IMG/VR virus record: IMGVR_UViG_3300031647_000029
Location: 1 to 33,956 of that record
Direction: 5' to 3' (one strand)
Length of the DNA stretch: 33,956 bases
From: a virus
Lineage: Duplodnaviria > Caudoviricetes
Each line of letters opens with the position of its first letter. The stretch's first letter is position 1. The position numbers were made by a program, and so were the translations under genes. The notes beneath the pieces were generated by a model, which worked only from the letters and a program-made list of their open reading frames with translations, was not told the DNA's origin and searched no databases. Below, piece after piece: positions 2,863 to 33,956 of this stretch.

Positions 2863-3144
2863 TTAAAAAATGCTTTTATGTTTCTTTTCTAGTCTTTCAA
2901 GTCTTTTTACTAATTGTCTTTCTATTCTAACATCAGTAGCCTCAAGTTGTTCTTGCTTTTCCTTAACAAGATCATAGTTAATTTCCTGAGCAACTGGCAA
3001 TTGTTTAGCTATTTCAATTTCCGCTTTAAGCGTTGCGTAAGTTAAAGTTAAAGAAATTATACCACCTATTACCATTATTAGAGTTTTCATGTCTACAACA
3101 ATATCATTGCCGTTTAAATCAATCTTTAATTTATTTTTTCCCAT
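2863..3144 (-). CDS. Small single-TM protein with coiled-coil tail; candidate holin/lysis accessory protein
   Basis: Hydrophobic stretch TLIMVIGGIISLTLTYATL followed by a charged helical C-terminus; lies two genes upstream of the M15 peptidase. Confidence 0.55.
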   Translation of the reverse strand: MGKNKLKIDLNGNDIVVDMKTLIMVIGGIISLTLTYATLKAEIEIAKQLPVAQEINYDLVKEKQEQLEATDVRIERQLVKRLERLEKKHKSIF

Positions 3145-6100
3145 TTATGGATTATTTATTATTAGTTTGCGTTTCTTTTTCTTAGAAGGTTTACCTTCAT
3201 TTTTCTCTTCTTTTAACTTGTCTTTATAGTCTTGTACTATTTGTTTTTTAGCTTCTGGTAACTCATATTTATTAATATCTAAACTGTATTGATCCCAACC
3301 AGCCATTAAAAATATACTCTGCCAGGTTTTAGTGTCTTCTTCTAAAGCTGTTCTTACGTTATCAACTTTAGTTATAATTCTATCAATAGGAAAGTTTGTT
3401 ACTGCAGATATAACTTGACCTGTTGCTAGTATAGCTGGATTGTCTATATCTAATCCTAAAGCCATCATTTCTTCTTTGTTGTAATCTACTGCTAAACCAG
3501 CTCCTTTTAATCTTTGATATTTAGAAGATATTGGAGGTGAAATACTTAATGCTTTTTCAGCAACCTTAACATATTTAGGTCTATCTTTTTTAGATTGTTT
3601 TCTTGCTTCCCACATCATATTTTTAATAGTAGCACCAACCGCACCATATACACCTGAACCACGTAGTATTGAATCTAACATGCTATTAGCAATGCTAAGA
3701 TTCTTTTCAAGCATACTTTCTTGTGCCTTTTGACATTTTTCTAGTTCTTTACCAACTTTACCCTCGCAAGGATCTTCATCATCAAACAACACAGCGAATA
3801 AAGCCTGCTGTAAAGCGTTAAATATATAATTTTGAGCTAATCCATAGTAAGCTATTTTAGATAGATTTGTTTTTAAATCACCTCTACCGTTTTTAGCATC
3901 TAAGTAAGCTTTTTTCATTAACCTATTGTATTGCATTGGTGTATTAGCAAAAGCTAAAACTAAACGACCTAAGCTACCAGCTTGTTGACTACTAATTTTA
4001 TCAGGTCTACTAGATTGCTGTGATTTTTCAGCGTTTTCTTGCATATCAAAAAATGCTTTTTCTTCTGCCTCTAATAAGCTAAAACCTTCTGCTTGATAAG
4101 TTTGTGTTCTATTTCTAAAAAACGCAGCGCCACCTGAAGCTATAGCCCAACTATCTACCATTTGAGTTAATACAAAACCATTTCTCATAAACCAGTTAAA
4201 CATAGCTTTAACTTTATTTCCTTTGCCTTTAACATAAGCAGCGATTTCGTCAGCACTTACATCAAACTTATTACCTGATCTTCTAGATTTTAAAAAATCA
4301 CTATTAAATATTCTAACAAAGTCACTTAAGAATTGTGGAAAATTAGCAACTGCTAAAGCAGCCTTAGCTGGATTGTTGTCTGTCCAGTTTAAAAAATTTA
4401 AATTTGAAATTGATTGTAGTATAGCACTTCTACCATTAACAAACATAACTACAGCTATAGAGTTATTTATCCAATTCATAAAGCCATTAACAATTTTGCT
4501 AGTTCCCATAGCTCTGTGTCTACCTGTTCTCATTCTGTAGATACTATCACTTAAAGCTTCTAAAAAATCCATACCAAATATAGCGGATATTTTATTAGCA
4601 GTAGGTCCTGTCAATAAACCAATACCATTTATAGGTCCAAATATAGAGTCAGAGTTTTCTAAAAATTCTTTTAAATACAAGTTTCTATTAGTAGTAGTAG
4701 CTGCGTTCTGTATGTCAGAATCTATATTACCTACTTCCCATGTCTCATCAGGTTTAACATATCCTTCAGCAAAAAGATTAAACGTCTGATCCGCGTAGTC
4801 TTTTAGCTCTTGATTGTCTTCAACAATTCCAATTAATTTTTTAATATCTGTATCACTTAATCCTGGTATTTCATAACCAGCTTTATTCCACATGTATACT
4901 CTAGTAGCATCACCATATGTAAATCCTGAGTAATCTGTCTCTTTGTTCAATAAAGAGTTTCTGTAGAAAGGAACTTTTGCTATTTTAGTATATCCACTTA
5001 TTAAAGGATGTTTAGCTTTTATAGCTTCGTATTGATTTTTAACGCGCATTCTAGCTACATTCATAGCATTTATGCCTCTACCAAATGGTTTCATTAAATT
5101 ATCTTCAAACCAAGCCATTTGTTCTTCACCTATTTTACCTTTACCTAAAAATTGATATATTAAACCTTCAAAATCTTCAGCCGCTGGAGGTAGAAAGAAT
5201 TTATTTTGTTTAATTATTACATCAGTTCTTTTAGCTCTTTGTTCTGAGAACACTTCGTCAGTTGGTATTTTAGATACGTCAAACAATATTTGATTAAAGT
5301 TTTGATTTAAAGTTTCACTGTTTCTTAACTTAGCTAATTGAGTAGTGCCTTTTACATCATACTTATCTAGTAGATCTTTTACAGCAGCAACGTTTTTAAT
5401 AGCATCATCTGCAAAGTAAAAATCATTATAACCTTCTGCTATTTTACCTTCTATCCAGCTTGCTTTAGCTTCTGGTTTACCGTCTTCTAAGCCTGTTATG
5501 TTCTCTATAGGTATATTTAATCCAACACCATCTAAAAAATCTTTAATAGCTGTAGCTGCCGCTTGCGGTCGAGCTGTTAAAACAAATACGTTTTCTGTTC
5601 CTCTTTTTTCTTGTATAGCCTCTGCAACTTCAAACAAAGGTCCTTTTTTACCTTTGATTACTTTGTTAAATTCAGAAAAATCAAACTTAGCTCCTTGAGC
5701 CTCAAGGTCTGCTGATTGCTTAGCAAATTCTGTAGCGTTTATTTTATATGTTTTTCCTTTGCTTTTACCTCTTAAACTAAACTCTAAATTATAATCTCCT
5801 TCTCCAATAAAATCTAAACTAACATCATAAGTTTTTCCGTTTATATTAAAAGAACTTTTTAAGTTGTCTGCAATGTCTTTTTTAAATTTTATAGCGTTTT
5901 TATTGCTTTTTATTTTTTTAGCATCTTTGCCTTTATTTAAAGTAAAGTCTTCGGATGTAATTACATCAGTACTTCCAGTGCTATCTACTGTTTCAAAAAC
6001 CTCTAATTTCCAACCTAAGTCTTTTGAAAGCTTATTAGCTAATGAGTTATATAATTTAACCCTGCTTTTTTCGCTAAACTCTGAGCTAAAACTTATTGTT

Positions 6101-9100
6101 TTTATATTATTATTATTTGCAACAGAATTTATAACGCTTTCGTAAACAGTATTAATTACTTTTTTAGCATCACCAGTATTAGTTACGCTTTGCACTGATT
6201 CAGGCATAGTAACAGTAACTTTGCTTTTAGATCTAGCTAAAGTGTCATCAAAATCAAATATTCTTATTTTGCCATCACCAATAGTTTCTGAATTACGTAA
6301 AGAAGATTCATTGCTTAAAGTAACTTCATAACCTGTTTCTATTTTGAGTCTTTGTGAAAACTCTTCCATAGCAACCTCATACATGTTTTTACCAGTTATT
6401 AAATCATACACTGTTTTTCCAATTTTACCACCATCTAATAAAAACCTTAAATTACCTAAAGGACTATTTCTTCCACCTAGTTTATCTAATGTGTCAGCCA
6501 TTTTATTTAACAAGAAAGACTGTTCAAAGCCACTTAAAATGCCATCAATATCTTGTATGTATGTGTCTTGTAAATAAGACTTAATTATAGATGACGTAAC
6601 AGTAGAAGAATCGTCTACGTGTTCACCTTTCCATCCTGTGAATTTATCATCAATGTTTTGCTTGCCATCTACAAAATGAAAAGAACTAAAAGCAGCATAA
6701 GCTCTAGCAGAAAAAACTGCGTTGGTAGTCTTTTGTAAATTATTAATAGCGTTGTTAACAGCCTCTGCTCTTGACATACCAGCTTTGACTTGAGAATCAA
6801 TCATGTCGTTTAAACTAGAATGATAAGCCTTCATAAATATTTTACCCATTTTTATAGCTGCAATACCTTTAGTTCCTATTGTTCTTCTTAGTTCTGCTAT
6901 TTTTTCTATAGCTGATAAATCTTTATTAGCTATATCTTTAGCAATACTTAATATGTGGCCTAACTTGCCGGCACTCTTATTACCTAATATAATTTTATTT
7001 ATATTAAATTTATCCCAAAGAGCTATAGTTTCTGGACTTGCTTTTGTTTTATTGTTTAATGCTTTATTTATAGCAGACTTTCTTTTTTCTTTGTAAACTT
7101 TCTTGCTATGTTCTACGAGTTCTGCATGTTGCTCTTGACTTAAAGCCATTTGCAGTTCTTCAGTTAATAATTCACCGTTAAAATCGTACATAGCAACATT
7201 AGTAGCATAAATGCCACTTCTAATGCTACCAACGTTGTGTTCTAATACTTGTTTTATAAAATTACTTTGTTGGTTTGCAACATTTTCAGAAGCATTAATT
7301 TGATCGTGAGGTATAAAACCTATAGCTTTAAAAACAAATTTATCTACGTAGTTTTCCATAGCCTCAGACTTAACTATATATCTATAACTGTATTCTGGTA
7401 CCAACTTACCGTTTGTCCAATTTAAATCTCCATTTTTTTCAGGTACTATTTTTTCTCCAATCTGTATTCTTTTACCTTTACTGTCAAGCCAGTATTCTTT
7501 GTAAATTAAATTATACCCTTTTTCTTTTAAATAATTTTCTGTAATAATATCAAGATTTTCCATTGACCCAATGTTGTCAACAAAGCCTGTATTGTTTAAT
7601 TCTACATCGCCAATAAATTCTTGCAGTTCATTTCTTAATAAATCTTGCACAGTCTCTGGCATAAGAGAAAAGTCTTGATCAAAAACAGAAGGATTATAAC
7701 CTAGATCTTGTAATTTACCTAGCACTTCAGAATCTCTAAAACTAGGAGTTGGTCTATTTATAGCTTTAGCCAATACTGCAGCGTAAATTTCTAATTGATC
7801 GTCATTTGTTATTTCTTGTATGCCTTCAAATCTATTTCTTGCTTCTGGATTATTTTGCATTACATCTATAGTTGCGTCAAATCCAAATTCTGCAGCTAAA
7901 GTTTTAGCTAAAGATTCTTTTCTAGTTTGGCTTTTTGTAAAGTACTCAATAAATTCCGTTTGATCGTAAGGTTTTCTAGTGTTTACCTGATTACCAGCTG
8001 TTCTGTTTTTTACACTTGGGCTTAAGTCAGATTGTTTAGTAGAAGCTCTTTCTGATATTAATACTTTAAATTGATTATATCTTCTGTTTATAATAGATTG
8101 ATCAAGTTTTTCGTAAATAGCCTCACCATGTTTTTTCAAAGCATTAGTAAATCTTGTAAGATTTCCCTTGCCTTTCTCATTGTCAACATGTCCAAAGAAA
8201 TCAGAAAACACAACGTCATATAAACTATTTTCAAAACTTGCTTGTAATTGTTTTTTAAATTCGTTTTGACTTATCATTGGAAGCCTAGAACCTAGAGCGG
8301 TTATCGTAGATTCAATAGCTTTTTTATATACAGGATTGTCTTCTTTTATATCTAGTAATTCAAACCAAGTCTTTTGTTGTTCTTCAGTATAAACATCATC
8401 ATCTATTAATGTGCCTACGTTTTTATCATTTAATTCACCACTAAAAACTTTACTTGTAGTGTTTCCAGAGTTTAAAGCGTTTTTACCTTTGTTAACAGCT
8501 TGTGATTTAATCCAAGCAGCTAGATTATCATTTTCAGAAGGATCAAAGTTTCTTATATGAGGTATTAATTCTATTTTTGTTTCAGAAATAAAGTCTTGCC
8601 TGCTAAAATCAGGTGTTCTTGTCATTTTTTCTGTTATTCTTGCTCCGACTATTTTATCTAACATAGGGTATATTTCACCTATAACATCATTAGATATTTT
8701 TTTCCATTCAGCCTTAGACATTGACTTGTTTTTCATAACATTAACACCACCCATTATACCGCTGGCTACTGCATTGATTTCACTATCTCTAAGTGAAGTA
8801 TTACTAGAAAAAGTACCACCATCTGTATTAAGATTAGTTCCTCTTCCTCCTCTTAAAAAAGAATTATTGTAATCTTTTAAAAAATCAAAAGCTTGTTTTC
8901 CAGTAGATATATTTGCGCCATTTATAACGTCAGGAGTCATTCCTAAAGTATACTTATAAAAATCAGTTATTTTATCAGCAAAATCTTGATAAAACTTTTT
9001 GTCAGCTCTTTCCCATGTTATATTTTTAAGCTGCATTTCATCACTTATTGATGTGAATAATTCTTGATAATAATTAGCACTTCCTTTGCCGTATTTTTTT

Positions 9101-12100
9101 GCAGCATTATCCATTCTGCCTTTAATTCTTTGCAAAGTTCCTTCGCTTATAGTTCTAGTATTAACATCTCCTAAACCTTCTGTTAAATAAGTCTCTAACA
9201 TAGCACCTACTTCTATCATTTTTTCGTCACTAAAAGATCTATCCATTATAGCGTGTAGTATCTCATGACTTAAAGCAACAGAACCAGTTGTATAATCTTG
9301 GTCATACATAACCTTTTGAGCCGCGCCCATAATGTTTTGATTACTAGTAACAACCCATTGTTTTTCTCCTTTTGTGTAACTAGTAATAAAAGCAGAAACG
9401 CTGCCGTCATTTTTATTTAAATAATCTTGAATAAATTGACTAGCTTCTTCTTCGGTTGCAAAACCTTCGTTTTTCATAACCCACGTTAACAAACCTTTAT
9501 TAGTTATTTTATCTGAGTTTTCGTTAAGCTCTATTATTTCAATATCTGAATCTAAGCCTAGTGTTTTTAAGAAATTAACACCTTTAGTTAAACCTCCCAT
9601 AGTTTCAGACATGTAATCTGCAAAAGTAGTAAACTGATCACCTTTAGACTCAGGAACTATTCCTAGGTTAAGTATAGTATCTATTTCTAATTGTATAATA
9701 TCAAGGTTTTTCTTAGCGTTTGTTGCTCCGCTAGTCGCTCCTTGTTCCATTATCATGTTTCTTGATTGAAAAAGATCTTGAAGTCTTTTCCTAACGCTAA
9801 CATTTGATTTTAATCTTCTTTTAGCGCTATTACTTATAGATGTATTTTGATCAATACCTGCATTGATTTGATCTACAATTAAATTATTTTTTAAAATTCT
9901 ACTGAGATCTTGTTTTGTTATTTTTTTAGCATTAAACAATTTAGTAGCAAATTTTTTAACTTTTTCAGTGCTAAAACCTTGTCTAACTGCATAGTTTAAA
10001 TTTTTTAGTTTTTCAGCATTTTTAACAGCTGTATTATAATATTGTCCTGTTGAAACTTCTACAGCAACATTACTACTAGTACTACCAAGACCACCTAATA
10101 TTTCGTTATTAGTATCAATCCAAAACTTATCATCACTAAATCCTAAACCTTCTCCCCAAGCTAAAGCACCCATTTCTCCTAGTCCTTCTGTTGCGGCATC
10201 AGTACCTATAACACCTACTGTTGTTACTAATTTTTGAGAACCTGTTTTTAATGCTAAGTTTCTAACCTGCATTTGAGTTAACTTAACGCCAGCTATTGAC
10301 ATAGCAGCTATAGGTATACCTCTTTTTGTTCCTAGCTCAAAAGCTTTTTCTTGAACTTTTTCGTCAGATAATATTTCTAATATTTGATCTTTATTTGTCC
10401 AAAATGTTGATTCATCAAATCCTCTTTTTTTAGCTTCTTCTGTAGCTGTTATATTAAAAGCATTACCCATCTCCATGTTGAAGCCAGTTATAGCCTGCCA
10501 AGTTAATAAAGCATCTGCTGTACCAGAAAACGCTCCACCTCTTATAACACTACTAGTAACTCCTACGGCTGCGGCAGGCGCAATAGACTCACTAGACCAT
10601 CCAGTTGTAGAAAACTGACCCAAGGAAGCTATAACTAAATCAGCTATTATCTCAACAGGGTTTTGCCCTAGTAAAGCAAACTGTTGTTGTGGAGTTTTAG
10701 CTTTTTTATATCTAGACATGTTCTCAGTTGTCATAAGACCTCTAGAAGCTGCTTGATTTACTATTATTTTTTCTATAGCTTCAGGCATTTCACTGTCATC
10801 TGTTACGCCATATATAATTCTATAAAACTCTCGGTTATTTCTACCAGTAGCTCTAGTCATTGTCCAGTCGTTAAGTAAACCTCTAACTACGCTATCAACG
10901 TATTGCCCTTCGTAATTAGCAACTTCTGAATCATCTAAAGCTAAAGATAAATTTAAACCTTGTGAAGCTATTTTGTTAGACTTAGTTGATATAAGATCAA
11001 ACTCGCTTAAAACATCGTTAACTTCATTAACTTGTGTTTGTATAGCGTTGTATTGGTCGAATAAAGCGTTTACTTCATCTAATTCTTTTTGATTTTTAGC
11101 AACAAATTTACCATTTGTGAATACAGAAAGATCATCAGTATACTTAAACATTTGATCGGTTATTTCTTTAAACTGCTCATCAAAACCTGCTTCAAGTGCT
11201 TCTAGTTTTTCAGCGCTCCAACCCGTGTTAGTTAGTTCTGTAAACTTAGTAACCACTCTATCGTGAGCGTTTTGAAGCTTTTCATAATCAGCATTTAAAT
11301 TAGCTGTTTTGTATTTAGCAAAATCTTGTATAATTTTTTTGCTTTTATCCATCATGTCCATGTAGATAGGACTACTAAGTGATTCAGCTATTTTTTGTTG
11401 TCTAGCATTAACTTCTCCTTGTCTCGCGTCGTCTACTCCAAATATTCCTGTAAAATTTCCAGGTCTATAAGCAGTTCCTGCGCCTGTTCTAGTTCCAGTA
11501 TAATCAATACGACCGTCTTCAAATTCTTCAAAGTAATCTTCAAAATAAGGATTATCTTTTATTTCTTTTAGTTTTTCTTTATTTGAAACATCACGACCTA
11601 TACCATAAATTGGCTCGTTAATTGAACTACCTTTGCTGTCTAACATAGGTTTAGTAGGTATAGATAGTTCGTCTTCGTTTCTTAAACTATTCCAAACGGA
11701 AAGTATAGCATCTCTTTGTTCAAACTCAATAGCTAACTTAGCGTTTTCTACTTCTAACTCGTTAAACTTGTTCCAATCGTAACCTTGTTGAGTAAATATA
11801 ACCTGTTCTACAAAATCTGTAAAACTACTTTTACCGTCTTTAGCATTAAAATCAATATCAATTTCATTACCTAAAAAATTATATAAATTCTTTTTATTTT
11901 TTTTCTTATAATCTATAGCTTTGTTGTATTCAGCCATAATTCTGTTCATATCCCAAGTATTAATATCTTCTGGAATATTATAAGGAGTTTCTACATCTGT
12001 ATTTAAACCAGTAACATTGTCAAGTCCTTGTATTTTGTTAATATCAATTTCAACAGGAGGGGCTAAAGCGAAATCGCTTATATCTCTAACGTTTCTAGCA

Positions 12101-12375
12101 ATTTCTACGTCTTTTGGATAATCAATCGTGCCAAATTCATCACCTCTTGGTACACCTACAGAAGTCGGCGTGTTGGAGTCCAAAGAAATATCCAGCGAAG
12201 GTAACTCCCCAACTTCGCTGTCTAGCTTTCCCACTTCATCTAACCCTAAGTTAGTTGATTTAAAGCTATCTTTAAGTGCTTTTATTTGAATGTCCATGTC
12301 AACAGCTTTAGTTTCTTTTAACTTAGCTCTAAGGGCACTTATTTGTTTTAATTGTGAAAATGTATAATCTGCCAT
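3145..12375 (-). CDS. Giant (3076 aa) multidomain virion cargo/ejection protein: membrane-like region, zincin HExxH, sigma region-2-like, HAD phosphatase, C-terminal helical domain
   Basis: Lies after the muzzle and two smaller cargo genes. Motifs: HEILH (aa 1037-1041), DFISE...NFDPSENDNLAAWI, and the HAD set IFDFDDTL / LTARP / K / FADD. Confidence 0.85.
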   Translation of the reverse strand: MADYTFSQLKQISALRAKLKETKAVDMDIQIKALKDSFKSTNLGLDEVGKLDSEVGELPSLDISLDSNTPTSVGVPRGDEFGTIDYPKDVEIARNVRDISDFALAPPVEIDINKIQGLDNVTGLNTDVETPYNIPEDINTWDMNRIMAEYNKAIDYKKKNKKNLYNFLGNEIDIDFNAKDGKSSFTDFVEQVIFTQQGYDWNKFNELEVENAKLAIEFEQRDAILSVWNSLRNEDELSIPTKPMLDSKGSSINEPIYGIGRDVSNKEKLKEIKDNPYFEDYFEEFEDGRIDYTGTRTGAGTAYRPGNFTGIFGVDDARQGEVNARQQKIAESLSSPIYMDMMDKSKKIIQDFAKYKTANLNADYEKLQNAHDRVVTKFTELTNTGWSAEKLEALEAGFDEQFKEITDQMFKYTDDLSVFTNGKFVAKNQKELDEVNALFDQYNAIQTQVNEVNDVLSEFDLISTKSNKIASQGLNLSLALDDSEVANYEGQYVDSVVRGLLNDWTMTRATGRNNREFYRIIYGVTDDSEMPEAIEKIIVNQAASRGLMTTENMSRYKKAKTPQQQFALLGQNPVEIIADLVIASLGQFSTTGWSSESIAPAAAVGVTSSVIRGGAFSGTADALLTWQAITGFNMEMGNAFNITATEEAKKRGFDESTFWTNKDQILEILSDEKVQEKAFELGTKRGIPIAAMSIAGVKLTQMQVRNLALKTGSQKLVTTVGVIGTDAATEGLGEMGALAWGEGLGFSDDKFWIDTNNEILGGLGSTSSNVAVEVSTGQYYNTAVKNAEKLKNLNYAVRQGFSTEKVKKFATKLFNAKKITKQDLSRILKNNLIVDQINAGIDQNTSISNSAKRRLKSNVSVRKRLQDLFQSRNMIMEQGATSGATNAKKNLDIIQLEIDTILNLGIVPESKGDQFTTFADYMSETMGGLTKGVNFLKTLGLDSDIEIIELNENSDKITNKGLLTWVMKNEGFATEEEASQFIQDYLNKNDGSVSAFITSYTKGEKQWVVTSNQNIMGAAQKVMYDQDYTTGSVALSHEILHAIMDRSFSDEKMIEVGAMLETYLTEGLGDVNTRTISEGTLQRIKGRMDNAAKKYGKGSANYYQELFTSISDEMQLKNITWERADKKFYQDFADKITDFYKYTLGMTPDVINGANISTGKQAFDFLKDYNNSFLRGGRGTNLNTDGGTFSSNTSLRDSEINAVASGIMGGVNVMKNKSMSKAEWKKISNDVIGEIYPMLDKIVGARITEKMTRTPDFSRQDFISETKIELIPHIRNFDPSENDNLAAWIKSQAVNKGKNALNSGNTTSKVFSGELNDKNVGTLIDDDVYTEEQQKTWFELLDIKEDNPVYKKAIESTITALGSRLPMISQNEFKKQLQASFENSLYDVVFSDFFGHVDNEKGKGNLTRFTNALKKHGEAIYEKLDQSIINRRYNQFKVLISERASTKQSDLSPSVKNRTAGNQVNTRKPYDQTEFIEYFTKSQTRKESLAKTLAAEFGFDATIDVMQNNPEARNRFEGIQEITNDDQLEIYAAVLAKAINRPTPSFRDSEVLGKLQDLGYNPSVFDQDFSLMPETVQDLLRNELQEFIGDVELNNTGFVDNIGSMENLDIITENYLKEKGYNLIYKEYWLDSKGKRIQIGEKIVPEKNGDLNWTNGKLVPEYSYRYIVKSEAMENYVDKFVFKAIGFIPHDQINASENVANQQSNFIKQVLEHNVGSIRSGIYATNVAMYDFNGELLTEELQMALSQEQHAELVEHSKKVYKEKRKSAINKALNNKTKASPETIALWDKFNINKIILGNKSAGKLGHILSIAKDIANKDLSAIEKIAELRRTIGTKGIAAIKMGKIFMKAYHSSLNDMIDSQVKAGMSRAEAVNNAINNLQKTTNAVFSARAYAAFSSFHFVDGKQNIDDKFTGWKGEHVDDSSTVTSSIIKSYLQDTYIQDIDGILSGFEQSFLLNKMADTLDKLGGRNSPLGNLRFLLDGGKIGKTVYDLITGKNMYEVAMEEFSQRLKIETGYEVTLSNESSLRNSETIGDGKIRIFDFDDTLARSKSKVTVTMPESVQSVTNTGDAKKVINTVYESVINSVANNNNIKTISFSSEFSEKSRVKLYNSLANKLSKDLGWKLEVFETVDSTGSTDVITSEDFTLNKGKDAKKIKSNKNAIKFKKDIADNLKSSFNINGKTYDVSLDFIGEGDYNLEFSLRGKSKGKTYKINATEFAKQSADLEAQGAKFDFSEFNKVIKGKKGPLFEVAEAIQEKRGTENVFVLTARPQAAATAIKDFLDGVGLNIPIENITGLEDGKPEAKASWIEGKIAEGYNDFYFADDAIKNVAAVKDLLDKYDVKGTTQLAKLRNSETLNQNFNQILFDVSKIPTDEVFSEQRAKRTDVIIKQNKFFLPPAAEDFEGLIYQFLGKGKIGEEQMAWFEDNLMKPFGRGINAMNVARMRVKNQYEAIKAKHPLISGYTKIAKVPFYRNSLLNKETDYSGFTYGDATRVYMWNKAGYEIPGLSDTDIKKLIGIVEDNQELKDYADQTFNLFAEGYVKPDETWEVGNIDSDIQNAATTTNRNLYLKEFLENSDSIFGPINGIGLLTGPTANKISAIFGMDFLEALSDSIYRMRTGRHRAMGTSKIVNGFMNWINNSIAVVMFVNGRSAILQSISNLNFLNWTDNNPAKAALAVANFPQFLSDFVRIFNSDFLKSRRSGNKFDVSADEIAAYVKGKGNKVKAMFNWFMRNGFVLTQMVDSWAIASGGAAFFRNRTQTYQAEGFSLLEAEEKAFFDMQENAEKSQQSSRPDKISSQQAGSLGRLVLAFANTPMQYNRLMKKAYLDAKNGRGDLKTNLSKIAYYGLAQNYIFNALQQALFAVLFDDEDPCEGKVGKELEKCQKAQESMLEKNLSIANSMLDSILRGSGVYGAVGATIKNMMWEARKQSKKDRPKYVKVAEKALSISPPISSKYQRLKGAGLAVDYNKEEMMALGLDIDNPAILATGQVISAVTNFPIDRIITKVDNVRTALEEDTKTWQSIFLMAGWDQYSLDINKYELPEAKKQIVQDYKDKLKEEKNEGKPSKKKKRKLIINNP
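12140..12232 (-). other. Candidate programmed -1 ribosomal frameshift cassette
   Basis: In-frame G GGA AAG (12232-12226), 5-nt spacer, perfect 8-bp stem CAGCGAAG/CTTCGCTG, loop able to pair with downstream GACTCC, and a -1 frame stop at 12142-12140. Confidence 0.65.
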
Positions 12376-14750: not shown

Positions 14751-16130
14751 TTATCTTAAATTGTATGTTGCCCCTACTGAAAATATTCTTTTAATAGAAG
14801 TTGTATTTGTGTTTCCGTCTGTTCTCATTGTTACATCTATATAATAACCTTTCGTACCCATTAATGAATCACCAAAAAGTACTTCTCCTATTTGAGGAGG
14901 TGTGTTGTTTTTTATACTTGCAACATATTTGTTTTGTTTTCTATCAAAACCTTCGTAATACTGTATTCCACCATCTTCATAACCACCGTCATTGTAACTT
15001 AATATACCTGATGCAGTGTCTTGATAACTACTCCATCCGCCGTCAAAAAAGTTTTGACCAGTAGATTCAGAAGCTAAATTAATTACTTCCCATCCATTAG
15101 TCCCTTCGTAATTTATAGTATTAAAAGTTTTCATTCTAGTTGGTTCAGGGTTTACAACTAATTTTAAAGTTGAAAGTCTGCTACCACCTGCATAAAATTT
15201 ATTAGGTTGAGCTGGGTTTTGATAATGTAAAAATAATTTATCATTTCTTATAGAATAAAAATCTCCTTGCACACTGAATATAAAATAAGGATCAAACGTG
15301 AAAAAGCTAGTCCAACCTAAAACTCTTTCGTCAAAAGATAAAGTCCTATAAGGAAGTGATTCAGGTTGTAAAGATATAACATAATTTTGGTTGTATATAT
15401 CAAATCCACCTATCACTTTACCAGTTCCTGTGTTTCTTTGAACAAGTCTCAACTGGTCTCTAAAAAAGTCTGACATACCATAATTAGATATTTCAGTTAT
15501 ACCATCGTTAGATAGCCTTAAAACAGCGTTCCTATCAGCGTCAGCAAAGTATTTTCTAGTACCGTAAACCGCAAAAGACTCTGGGTTCCTACTAATACCA
15601 TACTCACCTCTGTAAGCTATGATTTGACCTATCACTAGGTTAGCTGTAGTTGTTATAGATGCGCCTTCTGCAGAGTATATAGCATCTTTATCTATCAATG
15701 CTCTGTTTACTTTGCGCTCTTGAAAAATTATTAAATTTGTATCTTCAGAATATAATTTCTGTATAGAACCATTTATAGGATCTACGCTTCTTGTTATTTC
15801 TTCTGCTACACTAAATTGATTGGTTTGATTTATACCTGTTCTAGAATTAAAAACTCCAGAATATATAAGACTACTAGCTCTTCTTGACTGAGCCGCTGTG
15901 TCTTCTACTATGTAAGCTTTAACTCCAAAATCAACAGTAGTATTATTGTAACCACCTCTAATTCTAGATTCTTCAATATACCAGTCGCTTTCTATCCTTA
16001 ATCCAACAGGTACTGTAGCAGAAGGATCAACAGCATAGGCAGCAGATGAAGAAATCTGAGGCATAGCTTCACTTGCTAATCTCTTTACTGTAAAGGTGTT
16101 AAAATAACTTAATTCTATCGTTGCTCCCAT
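14751..16130 (-). CDS. Tail muzzle/nozzle protein, C-terminal beta-propeller part (crAss-like)
   Basis: LIYSGVFNSRTGINQTNQF, GSIQKL, YGISRNPESFA, YFAD...VLRLSNDGITEISNYGM and GWTSFF propeller-type motifs. Confidence 0.7.
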   Translation of the reverse strand: MGATIELSYFNTFTVKRLASEAMPQISSSAAYAVDPSATVPVGLRIESDWYIEESRIRGGYNNTTVDFGVKAYIVEDTAAQSRRASSLIYSGVFNSRTGINQTNQFSVAEEITRSVDPINGSIQKLYSEDTNLIIFQERKVNRALIDKDAIYSAEGASITTTANLVIGQIIAYRGEYGISRNPESFAVYGTRKYFADADRNAVLRLSNDGITEISNYGMSDFFRDQLRLVQRNTGTGKVIGGFDIYNQNYVISLQPESLPYRTLSFDERVLGWTSFFTFDPYFIFSVQGDFYSIRNDKLFLHYQNPAQPNKFYAGGSRLSTLKLVVNPEPTRMKTFNTINYEGTNGWEVINLASESTGQNFFDGGWSSYQDTASGILSYNDGGYEDGGIQYYEGFDRKQNKYVASIKNNTPPQIGEVLFGDSLMGTKGYYIDVTMRTDGNTNTTSIKRIFSVGATYNLR

Positions 16131-16159: not shown

Positions 16160-19100
16160 TTACACCGGTCCTAGATTACATTCGCCACCATAACCAGGTG
16201 TTGCATCTCCAAACTGTATAAAAAACTTAGCATCGTTTGCGCAAGCAGGCGTACTACATCTAGGTCCTGTTAAAGGTGTTGTTAGTACTCTGTATTCCCC
16301 AGCAACGTCAAATTCAAAAGTTAGAAATGCACTTACGCCATTAGTAGGCGTAACGCTATTAAAAGAAGTTATAGGCACTACTAAATTAGCTCCAAACTGG
16401 CCGGTTCCAGCGGTGACTGTTTGTGCGGTAGTTGCGTTTACCCAGGTTGATCCTGATTTATATTGTATTACAAATGTACCTGAAACTTCATTGTTGGTAG
16501 AGCATGCTCCGTTAATTGGGTTTTCTATTTTAACAATTATATACATTTGAGCTCCGTCATTTAACCCACCGTTACCTGTGGTTGATCCTATGTTTGCTAA
16601 ATTATATTGATAAGCTACATTGTAATAAAAAGTTGTACCCCATATTGCGCCGCTAGGTAAATTACCAGTGGTAGTGTTAACTGCGCTATTTCTAAAATGA
16701 AACTCTCCTCCGCCTGGCGAACAACTGTAATCAAAATTATTAGAACCTGTTGCTCCACCGTTTGATCGGTAATTGTTACACACAGCTTGATTCACATGCT
16801 GTGCTCCAGTTGTCCATGATAAGCTACTAGTTTGTGTTAAAAAACCAACTCCAGTACCATTGCAATCAGAGGCTAAAGCTATTACAGTATATGTAGTATT
16901 TAAAACCATAGACTTACCAGCTTTTACAGCTAGTAAACCTGGAACAATAACATTATCTTTAGTCGCATTGATCTCAAAAATATCTACATCCGCGCCGTTT
17001 GTATCAACTTGACTTTGTATTGAGTAAACTATTTGGTTAGGTCTGTTAGTTGCGTTAGCAGATCCATTGTAGGCTTCAAAACTAGTTGTTTGTATTACAT
17101 CTCCATCATCATTTGTTTCCCATAGTATGTAAGTATCGTTTATTTGTATTAATCTATCGGCGTTTAAAACAGGATTACCTATTGTTTTAGTAGCGGGAAA
17201 CCTTGGTGTGTTAGTATTTGGTGGTTCAATGTTTGTTAGTGAAGCTGTTATACTAATGTTACTGGTATAAACTACACTAGTTACTTGTTCTGTGTAAACT
17301 ACTACCATGTTTATTTGATAGACGTCGTCTTGAGTAGATGTTGTACTATACCAAAAAGTTTTATCTGGTCCTGTTTTTAATGACCAACTGCCATCAGTGT
17401 TGTCTTCAGTTATAGCAAAAGGAACTTCGCTTGTAACATTAACAGATCCGTTATTAGAAAATACACTCAATATAGTAGCGCTGTCTACGTTTCTTTCTGT
17501 ACCACCTCCATCTAAAAACTTCCAAGAAGCATCTATGACTGTATTAACAGCAGCGCTTTCTGGAAATGTAAAGTTATCTTCATCCGTTCCAACTATTCCT
17601 GGGTCTTGAGCGTCAATTAATGCGTTTAAACCAGGTAAATAGCCTGTTGAAGATGTTTCCCAGAATATTTCTAGTAAAGATTCTATAGGATTTGTTTCTG
17701 CTACAGTTAATATACTTCCAAAAGAATACGGCGTACCGTTTACTGGAGTTTGAGGACTAACAACATGACCTGTAGTAGTGCATATAGCGCCTAAAGGATT
17801 AGTTGATAGATTTCCTACAGATATTTGAGCAGTTAAAGGATTGTTTTCTAAATTATAAAAAGGAGCTGCTTGAGGAGACGGAGGATTAGTAGCTCCAGGT
17901 GTAGTTCCCCAAGGAATTTTACCACTACCTTCTCTTGTAAATTGATTAGTTCCTGCTACTCCAGTTTGAACAACATCATTATAGGTGCCTTTGTTTACTC
18001 CTGAAATAAAAGGAATTGTTGCGAGCTCTCCATCTATGACACTTTGTATGTTTACTATAGTGTCATCAAGGTTTCCAGGAAAATACTGAACATTAAAAGG
18101 AGTGTAATTATATTTACCTGCATCGGTTTTATATTCCATGCTAGGATTATTAACTCTAGTATAAAGTCTAACACTACTTCTGTACTGTGTTTGATTAGGT
18201 CCAACTTCATTTAAATCTCTAGGAACCTTGTTAACATTGTCCCCAAACAATGGTGTAAAAGCTGTTATATTTCTTTCTTTATCAGTAGTAATAGGATAAC
18301 CATTAACAAAACCAGGTAAATAAACATTGTAGTAATCTTGCTCTTGTTGTTTTATTACTATTTTATAAGAATACCAACCTAAAGGATTTGTAGAAGAGTA
18401 CCAACCTGGTTCACCAGTTTCAGGGTTAGGGTTTTGCACTGCTATAGATCGCTCAAAAGTAATTCTTAAAGCGTCACCTATCCATGAAAAAGTTTGACCA
18501 TTTGCTATCTCGTCTTCATCTCTGTAGGAATGAAATATTGTAGAACCAGAAGCGCCTAGTATGTCATCTTGACTAGATAATATAACGTCAGATTGTCTAC
18601 CATATTGATCTGATAAAACAACCCCGACTTGATAAGTTCTGTTTTGTTTTAAAGAACTGTTAGGAAATTGAGTGTAGTTATCATACACAACGTCTTTTTC
18701 TTGAACTGATGTTATGTAATCAATATTTTCAGGCGCAGTGTGTTTGTCTATGTAGTTACCGTATACAATTCTACTACCTATAACTTCTTGAGCTAAGGCT
18801 TTTATTGGAACTTTATCATAAACTCTTACTGTTTGAGCTTCTGGTAAAGTTTTATAAGGTTTTATTGATTCGTAATTGTAGTCATAAAAATAACTAATAC
18901 CACCTGGATGAATTAAATCTTGATACTTAAAGTTGGAAAAACTAATATTAGAACTAGTAGATACGGTGTCTAATACTTTTACAGATAACTGATCTGCTTC
19001 TTTATATAAAATATCTATTTCAGTTATATGAAAATAATCATACAATGCTATTGGTGTTGCTATTTCCGACTGATCACTTTTTCTAGGAATAGGTATTCTT

Positions 19101-20500
19101 AATTTAATACTATCTACGTTGTTTTCAAACCAAGCTAGTATAGTAGACTTATAAGCGTCTTCCATGTCTTTGTCAGAAGAGTTTTGGCCTTTGCCAAATA
19201 TACCTTGTTGTTTAGGTATAAACATTATTTGAGTAAAAGGAGCCATTAAAGAATACTCGTTGTCGTCAAACTTAAATCTATAACTAAACCTTACGTATTC
19301 TCCTTCTAAAAAAGCAGGGTTACCTTTCCATTGTGAGTTGTAATCTGGATTATTACCTATTGTAATTTTTTGGTTTTGGTTAGGAACTTGTATTGTATTA
19401 GCTACATCTAAAGTAAAGTTAAAAGTCTCGTTTACTCCAGTTCCTTCAAACGCAACGGTTTGTATTATACCTGTGTTAGCTGGAACATCACCTAAACCGG
19501 TACTTATCCTTGCAGCCTCTTGACATGTAACAAGCATTCCTATCTCAGGTCTTGCTTCTCCTAATGCGCTTTTAATGATTTTTAAAACACTACCAGCTGC
19601 TCCGCCACCAGTAGCGGTAACTACCGTTGGGCCTACAAAATTAGAAACAAACCTATCATTTTTATTAGTCATAGAAGGTCTACTAAAATCTAATCGACTA
19701 TTAGTTATAGCAGTAAAAGGTTTTGACACGTGTATCTCTAACGTTCCTGCGTTATTAATTATCTTAGTGACAGTTATTAAAGTGTTTATGCTAGGTATTT
19801 CTGAGCTAAAATCTTTGTCAACATTAGTAACTATATCACCTGTTCTTACTGTAGCAGGCATAGTGCCTTGTATTTCTATTATACTACTATTACTATGTGC
19901 ACCATTTATTCTAGCGCTAGATCTTTCCATAGCTATTATAGTCTCATAAGGATAGTATTTAGCTACAGATATTTGTTCTTCTACTGTGTACTTTGTAGGA
20001 GCAGACGAAGCACTTGGATTTGCTAAAGCAATATTTATTTTTCTAGGCTGATTAGTATTGTCTGTAAAAAACAATAAATCTTCAATTAAATTAACGCCAT
20101 ATATAGGAAAATTTTTATCAAAATTTAAAAAGAATCCTTCAACTAGCTTAACAGGACTTACATTAGTAGGCGTGTTTAAGTTTAACCTATGTATAAAGCA
20201 TTTATTAGCGGCAACAGCTCTTGGTATTGTTGACGTACTTGTAAAATCTGTAGAAAAAATATATAAAAAACCTTTGCTATTATCTGCTATTTGCCCTATT
20301 ATACTTACAGCACCGCTTGGATCTAGATTAGTTAGAATTTCACTAGCGCCTGGTATTTGCTCAAACTCTCCAACAGTAGAACCTTCTGATCTACTTATTT
20401 GTAAATTTTCAGCTTCTCTATATTCTCCATTAGGAAGAATTCTAGCGTCTAAGTCTTGATTCATTTTGCCCTTTAAAAAAGCATTTGTAACTTCTGCCAT
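16160..20500 (-). CDS. Tail muzzle/stabilisation protein, N-terminal part with a beta-rich variable C-terminus (1446 aa)
   Basis: N-terminal GKMNQDLDARILPNGEYREAEN, LLFFTDNTNQPRKIN, RFSYRFKFDDNEYS, RIVYGNY and SLKQNRTYQVGVVLSDQYGR, typical of crAss-like tail stabilisation proteins. Confidence 0.75.
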   Translation of the reverse strand: MAEVTNAFLKGKMNQDLDARILPNGEYREAENLQISRSEGSTVGEFEQIPGASEILTNLDPSGAVSIIGQIADNSKGFLYIFSTDFTSTSTIPRAVAANKCFIHRLNLNTPTNVSPVKLVEGFFLNFDKNFPIYGVNLIEDLLFFTDNTNQPRKINIALANPSASSAPTKYTVEEQISVAKYYPYETIIAMERSSARINGAHSNSSIIEIQGTMPATVRTGDIVTNVDKDFSSEIPSINTLITVTKIINNAGTLEIHVSKPFTAITNSRLDFSRPSMTNKNDRFVSNFVGPTVVTATGGGAAGSVLKIIKSALGEARPEIGMLVTCQEAARISTGLGDVPANTGIIQTVAFEGTGVNETFNFTLDVANTIQVPNQNQKITIGNNPDYNSQWKGNPAFLEGEYVRFSYRFKFDDNEYSLMAPFTQIMFIPKQQGIFGKGQNSSDKDMEDAYKSTILAWFENNVDSIKLRIPIPRKSDQSEIATPIALYDYFHITEIDILYKEADQLSVKVLDTVSTSSNISFSNFKYQDLIHPGGISYFYDYNYESIKPYKTLPEAQTVRVYDKVPIKALAQEVIGSRIVYGNYIDKHTAPENIDYITSVQEKDVVYDNYTQFPNSSLKQNRTYQVGVVLSDQYGRQSDVILSSQDDILGASGSTIFHSYRDEDEIANGQTFSWIGDALRITFERSIAVQNPNPETGEPGWYSSTNPLGWYSYKIVIKQQEQDYYNVYLPGFVNGYPITTDKERNITAFTPLFGDNVNKVPRDLNEVGPNQTQYRSSVRLYTRVNNPSMEYKTDAGKYNYTPFNVQYFPGNLDDTIVNIQSVIDGELATIPFISGVNKGTYNDVVQTGVAGTNQFTREGSGKIPWGTTPGATNPPSPQAAPFYNLENNPLTAQISVGNLSTNPLGAICTTTGHVVSPQTPVNGTPYSFGSILTVAETNPIESLLEIFWETSSTGYLPGLNALIDAQDPGIVGTDEDNFTFPESAAVNTVIDASWKFLDGGGTERNVDSATILSVFSNNGSVNVTSEVPFAITEDNTDGSWSLKTGPDKTFWYSTTSTQDDVYQINMVVVYTEQVTSVVYTSNISITASLTNIEPPNTNTPRFPATKTIGNPVLNADRLIQINDTYILWETNDDGDVIQTTSFEAYNGSANATNRPNQIVYSIQSQVDTNGADVDIFEINATKDNVIVPGLLAVKAGKSMVLNTTYTVIALASDCNGTGVGFLTQTSSLSWTTGAQHVNQAVCNNYRSNGGATGSNNFDYSCSPGGGEFHFRNSAVNTTTGNLPSGAIWGTTFYYNVAYQYNLANIGSTTGNGGLNDGAQMYIIVKIENPINGACSTNNEVSGTFVIQYKSGSTWVNATTAQTVTAGTGQFGANLVVPITSFNSVTPTNGVSAFLTFEFDVAGEYRVLTTPLTGPRCSTPACANDAKFFIQFGDATPGYGGECNLGPV

Positions 20501-32671: not shown

Positions 32672-33956
32672 TTAGTTTTCTAATTTTGTAATTCTTGTTT
32701 TTAAATCTTCTATTATTTCTTGTTGTTCTTTTATTGCGTTTATTAGTACTGCTGTTAATTCTGAGTAAGCTACAGACTTAAGTCCGTCTTTAGGGTGTTC
32801 TAATATAAGTTCTGGTAAAACCGCTTCAACTTCTTGAGCTATAACACCAACTTTAGTAATTTCTTTATCAACATCATTTCTATTATAATAAACACCTCTC
32901 ATTGCTTGAACTTTGCCAATACAATCATCTATCTCTACTATATTCTCTTTTACTCTTATGTCAGAGTTTTGAGTTAATGTACCGTCAATAGTCATATTAC
33001 CTTGACCTACATCAAACGTCATTTTAATTGAATTTGGATTTCTCCAATATACAAGACCACAACCCATATCAAAGTAAGTGTCCGAGTTGTTCGTATGAAA
33101 TCTTACATATTTATTAGCTGCATAATTTCCTAAATACAAATCTGAAACACCGCTACTACTTTTAACTAATAGTCTTCCAGTAATTTCTAGTTTAACACTA
33201 TTAGTAGTAACAGTATTTCCCATACCAATATTACCGGCTCCATTTATGAAAAAACTAGTATTACTTCCAACGGCTCCATATCCTATTTGGAATGAAGCGC
33301 TGTTACCACCAGCATTTCTTATATAAAATTGATTGTTATTGTTTTGGTTTTGAAATATTATTGAGCCATTACTTGGTAAAAGAGTACGGCCATAAACAGT
33401 AAGACCAGTTGTTTCTATTCCTAGAACATTATATGACGCGTCGTCAGGACAGTTGTATTTTATGTATCTTATACCACAATCACCTACACCTTCACCAAAA
33501 AGTTCAATATTACCACGAACAGATAGTTTTTCACCTGGGGTGGATATATTAATACCAACGTTGCCGTTGTTTTTCATGGTCATTACATTTAATCCATGTC
33601 TACCTACATAAAAGTCTCCTGCGATATTTGTTAATCCCCATTGTCTATTTGTATGAGTGGTATCCGCGGTATCAAACTGAACAGTAGTTCTATTTGAACC
33701 TGCTAAACCTATAAGCACTGAATTAACACCATCAGATACAGTGCTGGTTACTGTTGTGCCTCTTACTTCTAAATTAGCGTCAGGAAAAGTTGTTCCGATT
33801 CCTACTTTTCCTCTGTCTAATACTAAAACATCATCAAAGCCAACACCATTGTTGACCATATTAAAAGAATATTGAACAATTCCTCCAGTTACTCTTTGTT
33901 TTAAATCTAATCTGTAATTTGTGTTACTTTCATTATAACGCCAACTTTGCCATGTA
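32672..33956 (-). CDS. Tail fibre/spike with C-terminal peptidase S74 intramolecular chaperone (5' end outside window)
   Basis: The frame is open to the window edge (TWQSWRYNESNTNYRLDLKQRVTGG...). Repeats GKVGIGT / GNVGIN / GNIGMG; S74 motifs SDIRVKENI, GVIAQEVEAVLPE and LINAIKEQQ. Confidence 0.9.
   Translation of the reverse strand, partial: TWQSWRYNESNTNYRLDLKQRVTGGIVQYSFNMVNNGVGFDDVLVLDRGKVGIGTTFPDANLEVRGTTVTSTVSDGVNSVLIGLAGSNRTTVQFDTADTTHTNRQWGLTNIAGDFYVGRHGLNVMTMKNNGNVGINISTPGEKLSVRGNIELFGEGVGDCGIRYIKYNCPDDASYNVLGIETTGLTVYGRTLLPSNGSIIFQNQNNNNQFYIRNAGGNSASFQIGYGAVGSNTSFFINGAGNIGMGNTVTTNSVKLEITGRLLVKSSSGVSDLYLGNYAANKYVRFHTNNSDTYFDMGCGLVYWRNPNSIKMTFDVGQGNMTIDGTLTQNSDIRVKENIVEIDDCIGKVQAMRGVYYNRNDVDKEITKVGVIAQEVEAVLPELILEHPKDGLKSVAYSELTAVLINAIKEQQEIIEDLKTRITKLEN

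Follow-up and report, generated by a model that had tools for sequence, protein, structure and literature searches.

The slippery heptamer of phage lambda is of the G GGA AAG type. In E. coli, the early −1 frameshift in copA that Meydan et al. 2017 are said to have described reportedly gives a small N-terminal protein, CopA(Z), from a large gene, and CopA(Z) is said to gain almost no new residues. Further cases are covered in sections of PMC5009743. There, the tau and gamma forms of dnaX arise by −1 ribosomal frameshifting in E. coli and by RNA-polymerase slippage on a run of nine in Thermus thermophilus, and the carboxysome proteins CsoS2A and CsoS2B by a truncating −1 frameshift in a shell-associated assembly protein (79 of 162 species), with CsoS2A keeping 570 of 869 aa and adding 3 new residues. 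In phages, lambda gpG/gpGT and the capsid extensions of T7, T3 and A2 are given there as shifts near the 3′ end that lengthen short proteins. The same sections describe G_GGA_AAG as highly shift-prone in E. coli and runs of nine as known polymerase slip sites.

Here we analyze a site near the 5′ end of a giant gene in a 33,956-nt virus record, estimated to be 57% complete (the window, by which we mean this whole stretch of DNA). From comparison of sequences we consider it likely that the site is a programmed −1 ribosomal frameshift leading to a selected, hidden microprotein of 78 aa, which would be a short N-terminal isoform of a long 0-frame protein of the dnaX, copA and csoS2 type. Like dnaX as described in those sections, the locus pairs a long 0-frame product with a shorter N-terminal isoform, and lineages appear to reach the short form either by a ribosomal slip or by a homopolymer run. 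Unlike in dnaX, the exit in the window lies at 2% of the gene and the predicted stimulator is an H-type pseudoknot; and whereas the new frame of dnaX stops almost immediately, that of the window's family encodes a conserved 12-residue motif. The early −1 frameshift and the small N-terminal protein from a large gene recall copA, although here the trans-frame tail appears to be selected and the gene is a likely phage virion gene. The frameshift in CsoS2 is likewise truncating and likewise present in only part of its family, but it is non-viral. In contrast to the few new residues of all three, the window would add a 28-aa tail with a selected motif.

As in lambda gpG/gpGT, this is a predicted −1 frameshift in a phage structural module at a G GGA AAG-type site. 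Unlike the shifts of lambda, T7, T3 and A2, that in the window would truncate a giant protein near its 5′ end, in a crAss-like, muzzle-bearing phage. A lambda-type G/GT tail-chaperone frameshift was considered and ruled out: the site is at codon 50 of 3076, it would truncate, and its neighbors are muzzle-like and cargo-like genes. The preliminary description of the window had remarked that its logic is the opposite of tail-chaperone frameshifts; the site lies away from any tail-chaperone position.

The giant gene and its candidate frameshift signal

The window sequence is present in marine and sponge metagenome runs, and its structural module contains a terminase, a portal, a capsid-like protein and a crAss-muzzle-like gene; the nearest isolates to this module are Maribacter phage Panino, Elemovirus, Pervagoviridae and Pachyviridae. 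The giant gene is the third of three genes (226, 550 and 3076 aa) that follow the muzzle-like genes, an order that matches gp120/gp121/gp123 of phi18:3, annotated from MS/MS. The similarity of the giant to the giant proteins of cultured phages is remote. Because the gene order is shared with the MS-annotated phi18:3 proteins, and with the crAss001 cargo arrangement as given in sections of PMC10172136, the 3076-aa product is likely a virion cargo or ejection protein, an assignment based on that order and on remote similarity to MS-detected virion proteins. A family search of the giant gave no cargo or ejection family match, its C-terminal 876 aa had no match among cultured phages, its N-terminal 200 aa found no relative among viral contigs, and residues ~480-1400 matched only unnamed clusters in the ESM Atlas. 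The gene upstream of it matched a single near-identical truncated locus and nothing else.

Two further observations concern this region. Residues 2232-2371 of the giant protein give a weak kinase/HAD-like PHROG match (phrog_415, E 2.5e-4), and a HAD/polynucleotide-kinase-like stretch with a DFDDTL motif lies at about 5260-5680 (−) of the window, inside the conserved C-terminal part of the giant. The adjacent ORFs at 16160-20500 and 14751-16130 (−) correspond to the N- and C-terminal parts, respectively, of a single PHROG family (phrog_14478); crAss muzzle Pfam models also match the second ORF. Three stops lie between them, as does a separate ATG. The pair may represent a split muzzle-like gene; alternatively, the second ORF could be a paralogue.

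The frameshift signal had been proposed in the preliminary description, and its components are present on the minus strand at the positions given there (Table 1). The heptamer is in phase, falling on codons 48-50 (GTG GGA AAG) of the giant ORF, and is followed by a 5-nt spacer, an 8-bp stem 1 (S1) and a 6-bp stem 2 (S2). The −1 product has 78 aa (50 + 28), ends in the residues foreseen and is closed by a TGA at 12142-12140. The conspicuously GC-rich patch that had been remarked on is also evident: GC3 of codons 48-70 is 0.61, compared with 0.18 in the rest of the giant gene, and tops all 3053 windows of this length along the gene. With a heptamer that is in phase and shift-prone in bacteria, and a short spacer and predicted 3′ structure behind it, the site shows two features of a bacterial −1 frameshift signal.

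The site also stands out among comparable ones. It ranks first of the 102 in-phase XXXYYYZ heptamers in 24 ORFs of the window by summed S1 and S2 energy (−26.2, compared with −19.6 for the next), first by S1 alone and second by 60-nt MFE. The runner-up at −19.6, a G GGA AAT heptamer with a possible pseudoknot, is located at 33221 (−) in a tail-fibre gene. When the region was synonymously recoded 1500 times, 27 recodings yielded a heptamer and 54 kept the −1 frame open through the motif, and none matched the pseudoknot score or the motif score of the window; a pseudoknot scoring as well was found at one other (codon 1711) of 1013 sampled codon boundaries in the giant gene. Folded as a nested structure, the 93 nt are unremarkable (z −0.64, with 49 of 200 shuffles equally good), and their MFE structure contains S1. 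Rfam returned no match for the site, only three chance hits (E>4). From the RNA runs, a small share of the window and one short contig outside the element were recovered.

Table 1. Positions of the giant gene, the predicted frameshift element and the related annotation breaks (window coordinates unless a locus is named)
Feature	Position	Strand	Basis or remark
Giant gene, 0 frame, 3076 aa	3145..12375	−	ORF 12375..3145
N-terminal module, about codons 1-40	12256..12375	−	Present in both the long product and the predicted short one
Slippery heptamer G GGA AAG, codons 48-50	12226..12232	−	Identical in L003
Spacer CTAGA, 5 nt	12221..12225	−	Pseudoknot scan
Stem 1, 5′ arm CAGCGAAG	12213..12220	−	Fold and two-species comparison
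Stem 2, 5′ arm GGAGTT, in the 12-nt stem 1 loop	12203..12208	−	
Stem 1, 3′ arm CTTCGCTG	12193..12200	−	
Stem 2, 3′ arm GACTCC, 12 nt after stem 1	12175..12180	−	Closes the predicted H-type pseudoknot
−1-frame motif WGVTFAGYFFGL, diverged family motif	12176..12211	−	Profile and alignment; predicted β-hairpin
−1-frame tail, 28 aa and TGA	12140..12226	−	Gives the predicted 78-aa product
A9 annotation breaks (Pachyviridae, Panino)	L242:26119-26382; L244:4310-4621; L245:6056-6364; L246:5119-5427; L243:18700-18900		

A −1-frame peptide across the family and its two probable entry devices

An alignment of seven giant proteins provided two peptide patterns far from the N-terminus, with which 79 loci were collected (best 80 of 444 confirmed); nine were left out as 5′-cut or under 2000 aa, leaving 70 complete genes of more than 2000 aa. 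For about 25 of these 70, a slippery codon pair precedes the best N-terminal pseudoknot, and the −1 frame closes with a common peptide, YG[ILF]x[IF]G[RK]WF[FI]G, and then a stop. This motif scores at least 10 bits in the −1 frame of 26 of 70-71 giant genes and in none in the 0 and +1 frames, the profile having been built from 24 genes, so that 24 of the 26 are its own training rows. A DNA pattern for the peptide alone matched an estimated 300 stretches, of which 120 were fetched. In 119 of these, the motif occupies the −1 frame of an ORF with no stop before the fetched sequence ends (80 matches had long flanks, reaching up to 1010 codons, and for the other 40 the reach was ~110 codons). The motif starts 41-119 codons after the ATG in the 115 matches with an ATG in reach, 119 of the 120 lack their own ATG, and in every case the stop comes 14-26 codons from the start of the motif.

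The substitutions within the motif point to the −1 frame as the one that is conserved. Single differences were silent only in the −1 frame 419 times and only in the 0 frame 41 times, as counted in 24 genes found regardless of motif DNA, with pairwise counts that are not independent and a motif that had been located in the −1 frame. Tyr1, Gly2 and Gly11 are invariant yet use all their synonymous codons, and the third positions of the −1 codons vary most. These patterns indicate that the −1-frame peptide itself is under purifying selection. The motif is absent in about 60% of homologues and patchy on a quick version of the tree, and we therefore suggest an accessory role, not one that is essential family-wide. 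Loci without the motif at the start of the giant gene did not have it elsewhere (at least 13 bits, six frames), with the exception of L071, whose giant gene is broken downstream. The alignment of −1 peptides matched no Pfam family and no solved structure. In the open-access article texts searched, no publication on the element was found; the words "frameshift" and "slippage" are absent from the available sections of PMC8776804, and those of PMC10885494 do not mention Cellulophaga, Flavobacter or Bacteroid.

We also considered whether the short form exists as a stand-alone gene. Of 38 profile matches, 34 are called proteins of 58-105 aa with module and motif in one frame; among 20 checked further, 16 form clusters with a single member, mostly on short single contigs, and we therefore take these one-frame proteins to be indel variants or assembly errors, not a fixed gene.

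Two devices would give entry to the −1 frame. Among 112 element clusters (<85% identity), 56 have a slip site and pseudoknot and 39 an A9-A10 run; 2 combine the two and 15 show neither, the last being mostly slip sites with imperfect stems; these class counts are biased, as the cut-off was set after the data had been seen and 27 loci were chosen by stem pattern. G GGA AAG is the commonest heptamer of the pseudoknot class (20 of 58), and the spacers, searched over 5-7 nt, measure 6 nt in 43, 5 nt in 9 and 7 nt in 6 of the 58. Across 22 related sequences chosen for equal geometry, 95.2% of pseudoknot cells are paired and 7 of 15 pairs have changed on both sides; none of 500 shuffles reaches this score and slid controls reach 53% or less, which indicates covariation of the stimulator in the common pseudoknot form of the family. 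The lysine codon of the slip site is AAG in 20 of 20 genes (L036 left out), compared with 13-37% of lysine codons elsewhere. In the 16 nt upstream of 21 sites, where a Shine-Dalgarno-like stimulator is an optional feature, no shared motif was seen by eye.

Runs of nine or more A precede 41 of the 112 elements, and there are none in 223,518 nt downstream. This class has the motif without a pseudoknot, in many cases with a −1-frame stop 2-4 codons ahead of it that fixes where entry would occur. It comprises mostly MW202828/Elemo-like giants, the pseudoknot class mostly the window's own family, and 55 of 69 downstream ORFs fall in one similarity component. In the A-run elements L138, L159, L166, L197, L206 and L227, an extra F[FI]G strand precedes the motif (near 2944-3048 or 280-390), which suggests a three-stranded version of the tail.

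The compact form of the window and the cultured relatives

The motif starts 14 nt after the slip site in the window and 17 nt after it in one relative, L003, compared with 35-71 nt in 56 others. The pseudoknot of the window therefore sits on peptide-coding bases and is not of the common family form. This compact form is seen in two species, the window and L003; scans for further species returned L003 and its strains and no third species. The two form their own branch on the quick tree, and their N-termini (L003/P0011) share 53% identity over the first 80 aa, while relatives have varied small modules at the position of the N-terminal module. The two share the same heptamer; in S1 they differ by one compensatory pair and by a mismatch in L003, and in S2 by two one-sided changes. 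With two species the compact pseudoknot is not significant alone (260 of 500 shuffles reach its score; 3 of 30 cells are unpaired). The heptamer, both stems, the open −1 frame and G-x-x-x-x-G-Y-x-F-G are nevertheless kept across these two species of ~50% protein identity.

By a profile built without it, the window motif scores 9.4 bits and that of L003 0.0, compared with 26-44 for the family, and ranks second of 31,218 twelve-mers in six frames. The top match, at 186 (+) with 13.7 bits, is off-frame in the 3′ end of the unrelated first gene and was taken as chance. In a MAFFT alignment of 81 sequences, the G, F and G of the window motif fall on the sole three invariant columns. The motif is thus diverged but in place, in the −1 frame, within the first ~120 codons and before a stop. 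The preliminary description had named conservation of the heptamer and structure in relatives as the test of its −1 frameshift reading, and the slip site, spacer and covarying pseudoknot conserved in relatives support that reading. The family motif in the tail, and the status of the window's pseudoknot as a compact variant at a shifted position, go beyond that description.

In contigs from runs X11, X16 and X17, the sequence is retained up to and including S2 and differs right after 12173. From this change just 3′ of S2 we infer a variable segment whose edge respects the element, and which strains may exchange.

Among cultured phages, an A10 run occupies the place of the element in phi38:1, Calle_1 and Elemo, an A11 run in MW202828, and an A9 run in phi13:2, phi18:3, phi19:3, phi46:3 and Panino. 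In each of eight examined loci that hold the site, the run is the only one of its kind on the coding strand. The A9 run puts the giant in the −1 frame and the motif-like tail in the −2 frame; the giant genes of four Pachyviridae and of Panino are annotated as split or shortened at this point (Table 1). The A9 may be a sequencing under-call or may reflect a true dependence on slippage. In phi46:3 the giant gene has a second break further downstream (L246:9758-10078), where there is no A-run. The tails of the cultured phages resemble the motif by eye only, with low profile scores, and the element DNA had no match among cultured phages; in MW202828, cysteine occupies both facing glycine positions of the hairpin.

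A proposed role for the short product and its alternatives

In the proposed mechanism, the predicted pseudoknot would make ribosomes pause on G GGA AAG; some of them would then move back by one base and terminate after 28 new residues, leaving a 78-aa protein beside the 3076-aa likely cargo. In the window the pseudoknot is built from peptide-coding bases, and ~36 nt would therefore be read in two frames and also fold. The short product, with a predicted length of 62-135 aa in 55 relatives, would consist of the N-terminal module, a basic linker and a hairpin; the net charge of the tail is +1 to +8 in 56 of 56. AlphaFold, run on the family alignment and modelled on the peptide of L110, not that of the window, returned a hairpin of two strands joined by a Gly-Arg turn (pLDDT 89 over residues 21-30), from which we infer that the tail folds as a cationic, aromatic, Gly-Gly-paired β-hairpin. 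One face of the predicted hairpin is wholly hydrophobic and its flanks are basic, and we therefore favor an anchor role, in which it would hold the short form on a membrane face or inside the virion. The short form could then act as an accessory docking or escort protein for the giant, its amount tied to that of the giant by the slip rate. Given the frameshift, this role and slip-rate-set ratio are put forward tentatively, with doubt slightly outweighing confidence.

Two uses of the shift had been proposed in the preliminary description, a short N-terminal isoform and a limit on the copy number of the giant. We favor the first over a pure copy-number brake because the −1 peptide appears to be under purifying selection and is reached by two unrelated devices. 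A real frameshift could still serve mainly to lower the output of the giant, each slip taking a ribosome off a 3000-codon gene, with the aromatic tail as a protease tag that clears the truncated N-terminal module. Aromatic clusters are degradation tags for Lon-type proteases, and the motif always comes just before the stop. Attenuation, however, needs no more than an immediate stop, and the fixed Gly/Tyr positions, the hairpin periodicity, the Gly-Gly to Cys-Cys swap and the further strand in some relatives suggest a folded binding element, so that we regard this explanation as unlikely. A real frameshift might instead yield a short product that works as a free, cationic and amphipathic hairpin, perturbing the host envelope during entry or lysis or preventing superinfection. 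The charge and hydrophobic face of the tail would fit, the predicted family hairpin resembles antimicrobial hairpins, and the patchy distribution suits an accessory role in host interaction. Strands of 6-7 residues are nonetheless short for crossing a membrane, Pfam and solved structures gave no match to back it, and the lasting fusion of the hairpin to the N-terminal module of the giant would be left unexplained; we think it distinctly unlikely.

Doubts of another kind concern the window's copy or the protein itself. The family element could be real while the copy in the window has lost its ability to slip, being a relic in decay or a GC-rich patch of unrelated origin, as the low motif scores, the different placement of the pseudoknot, the restriction to two species and the S1 mismatch in L003 would allow. 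It is difficult to reconcile such decay with an element retained in both species at their level of divergence, with the extreme GC3 of the gene, or with the failure of every recoding to reach the pseudoknot score, and we judge it very improbable. That the conserved bases act only at the RNA or DNA level, as a stability, transcription or recombination signal with no −1 protein, would agree with the strain contigs that change sequence at the 3′ edge of the structure and with stems that constrain part of the motif. But the differences are silent in the −1 frame, and in the A-run class the motif occurs without a pseudoknot and often just behind a −1-frame stop that fixes where the frame would be entered, which leaves this explanation scarcely credible.

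A more far-reaching reading is an unannotated, hidden microprotein gene at the start of the giant cargo gene, in which selection would keep the −1-frame β-hairpin constant while the entry device is swapped freely (a slip site with an upstream pseudoknot, an A9-A11 run or a new internal pseudoknot). Under it, slippage would be needed even for the giants of Pachyviridae and Panino, where the deposited run is A9, the short isoform would serve to anchor the cargo to a membrane or the virion, and the hosts of the element would be podophages of marine and freshwater Bacteroidota. Taken as a whole, with all of these parts, we hold this reading to be evenly balanced between right and wrong.

Known phage frameshifts lengthen tail chaperones or capsid proteins, whereas that of the window would cut a giant virion protein short at 2% of its length. 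Its product would be a conserved hidden microprotein that has escaped annotation both in cultured model phages and in hundreds of contigs from aquatic phages. The family would also offer an extensive natural collection of bacterial frameshift pseudoknots, rich in covariation, and an example, on the scale of phages, of homopolymer slippage and ribosomal slippage standing in for one another. For the biology of these phages, it would give a handle on the dosing and packing of cargo proteins in crAss-like virions.
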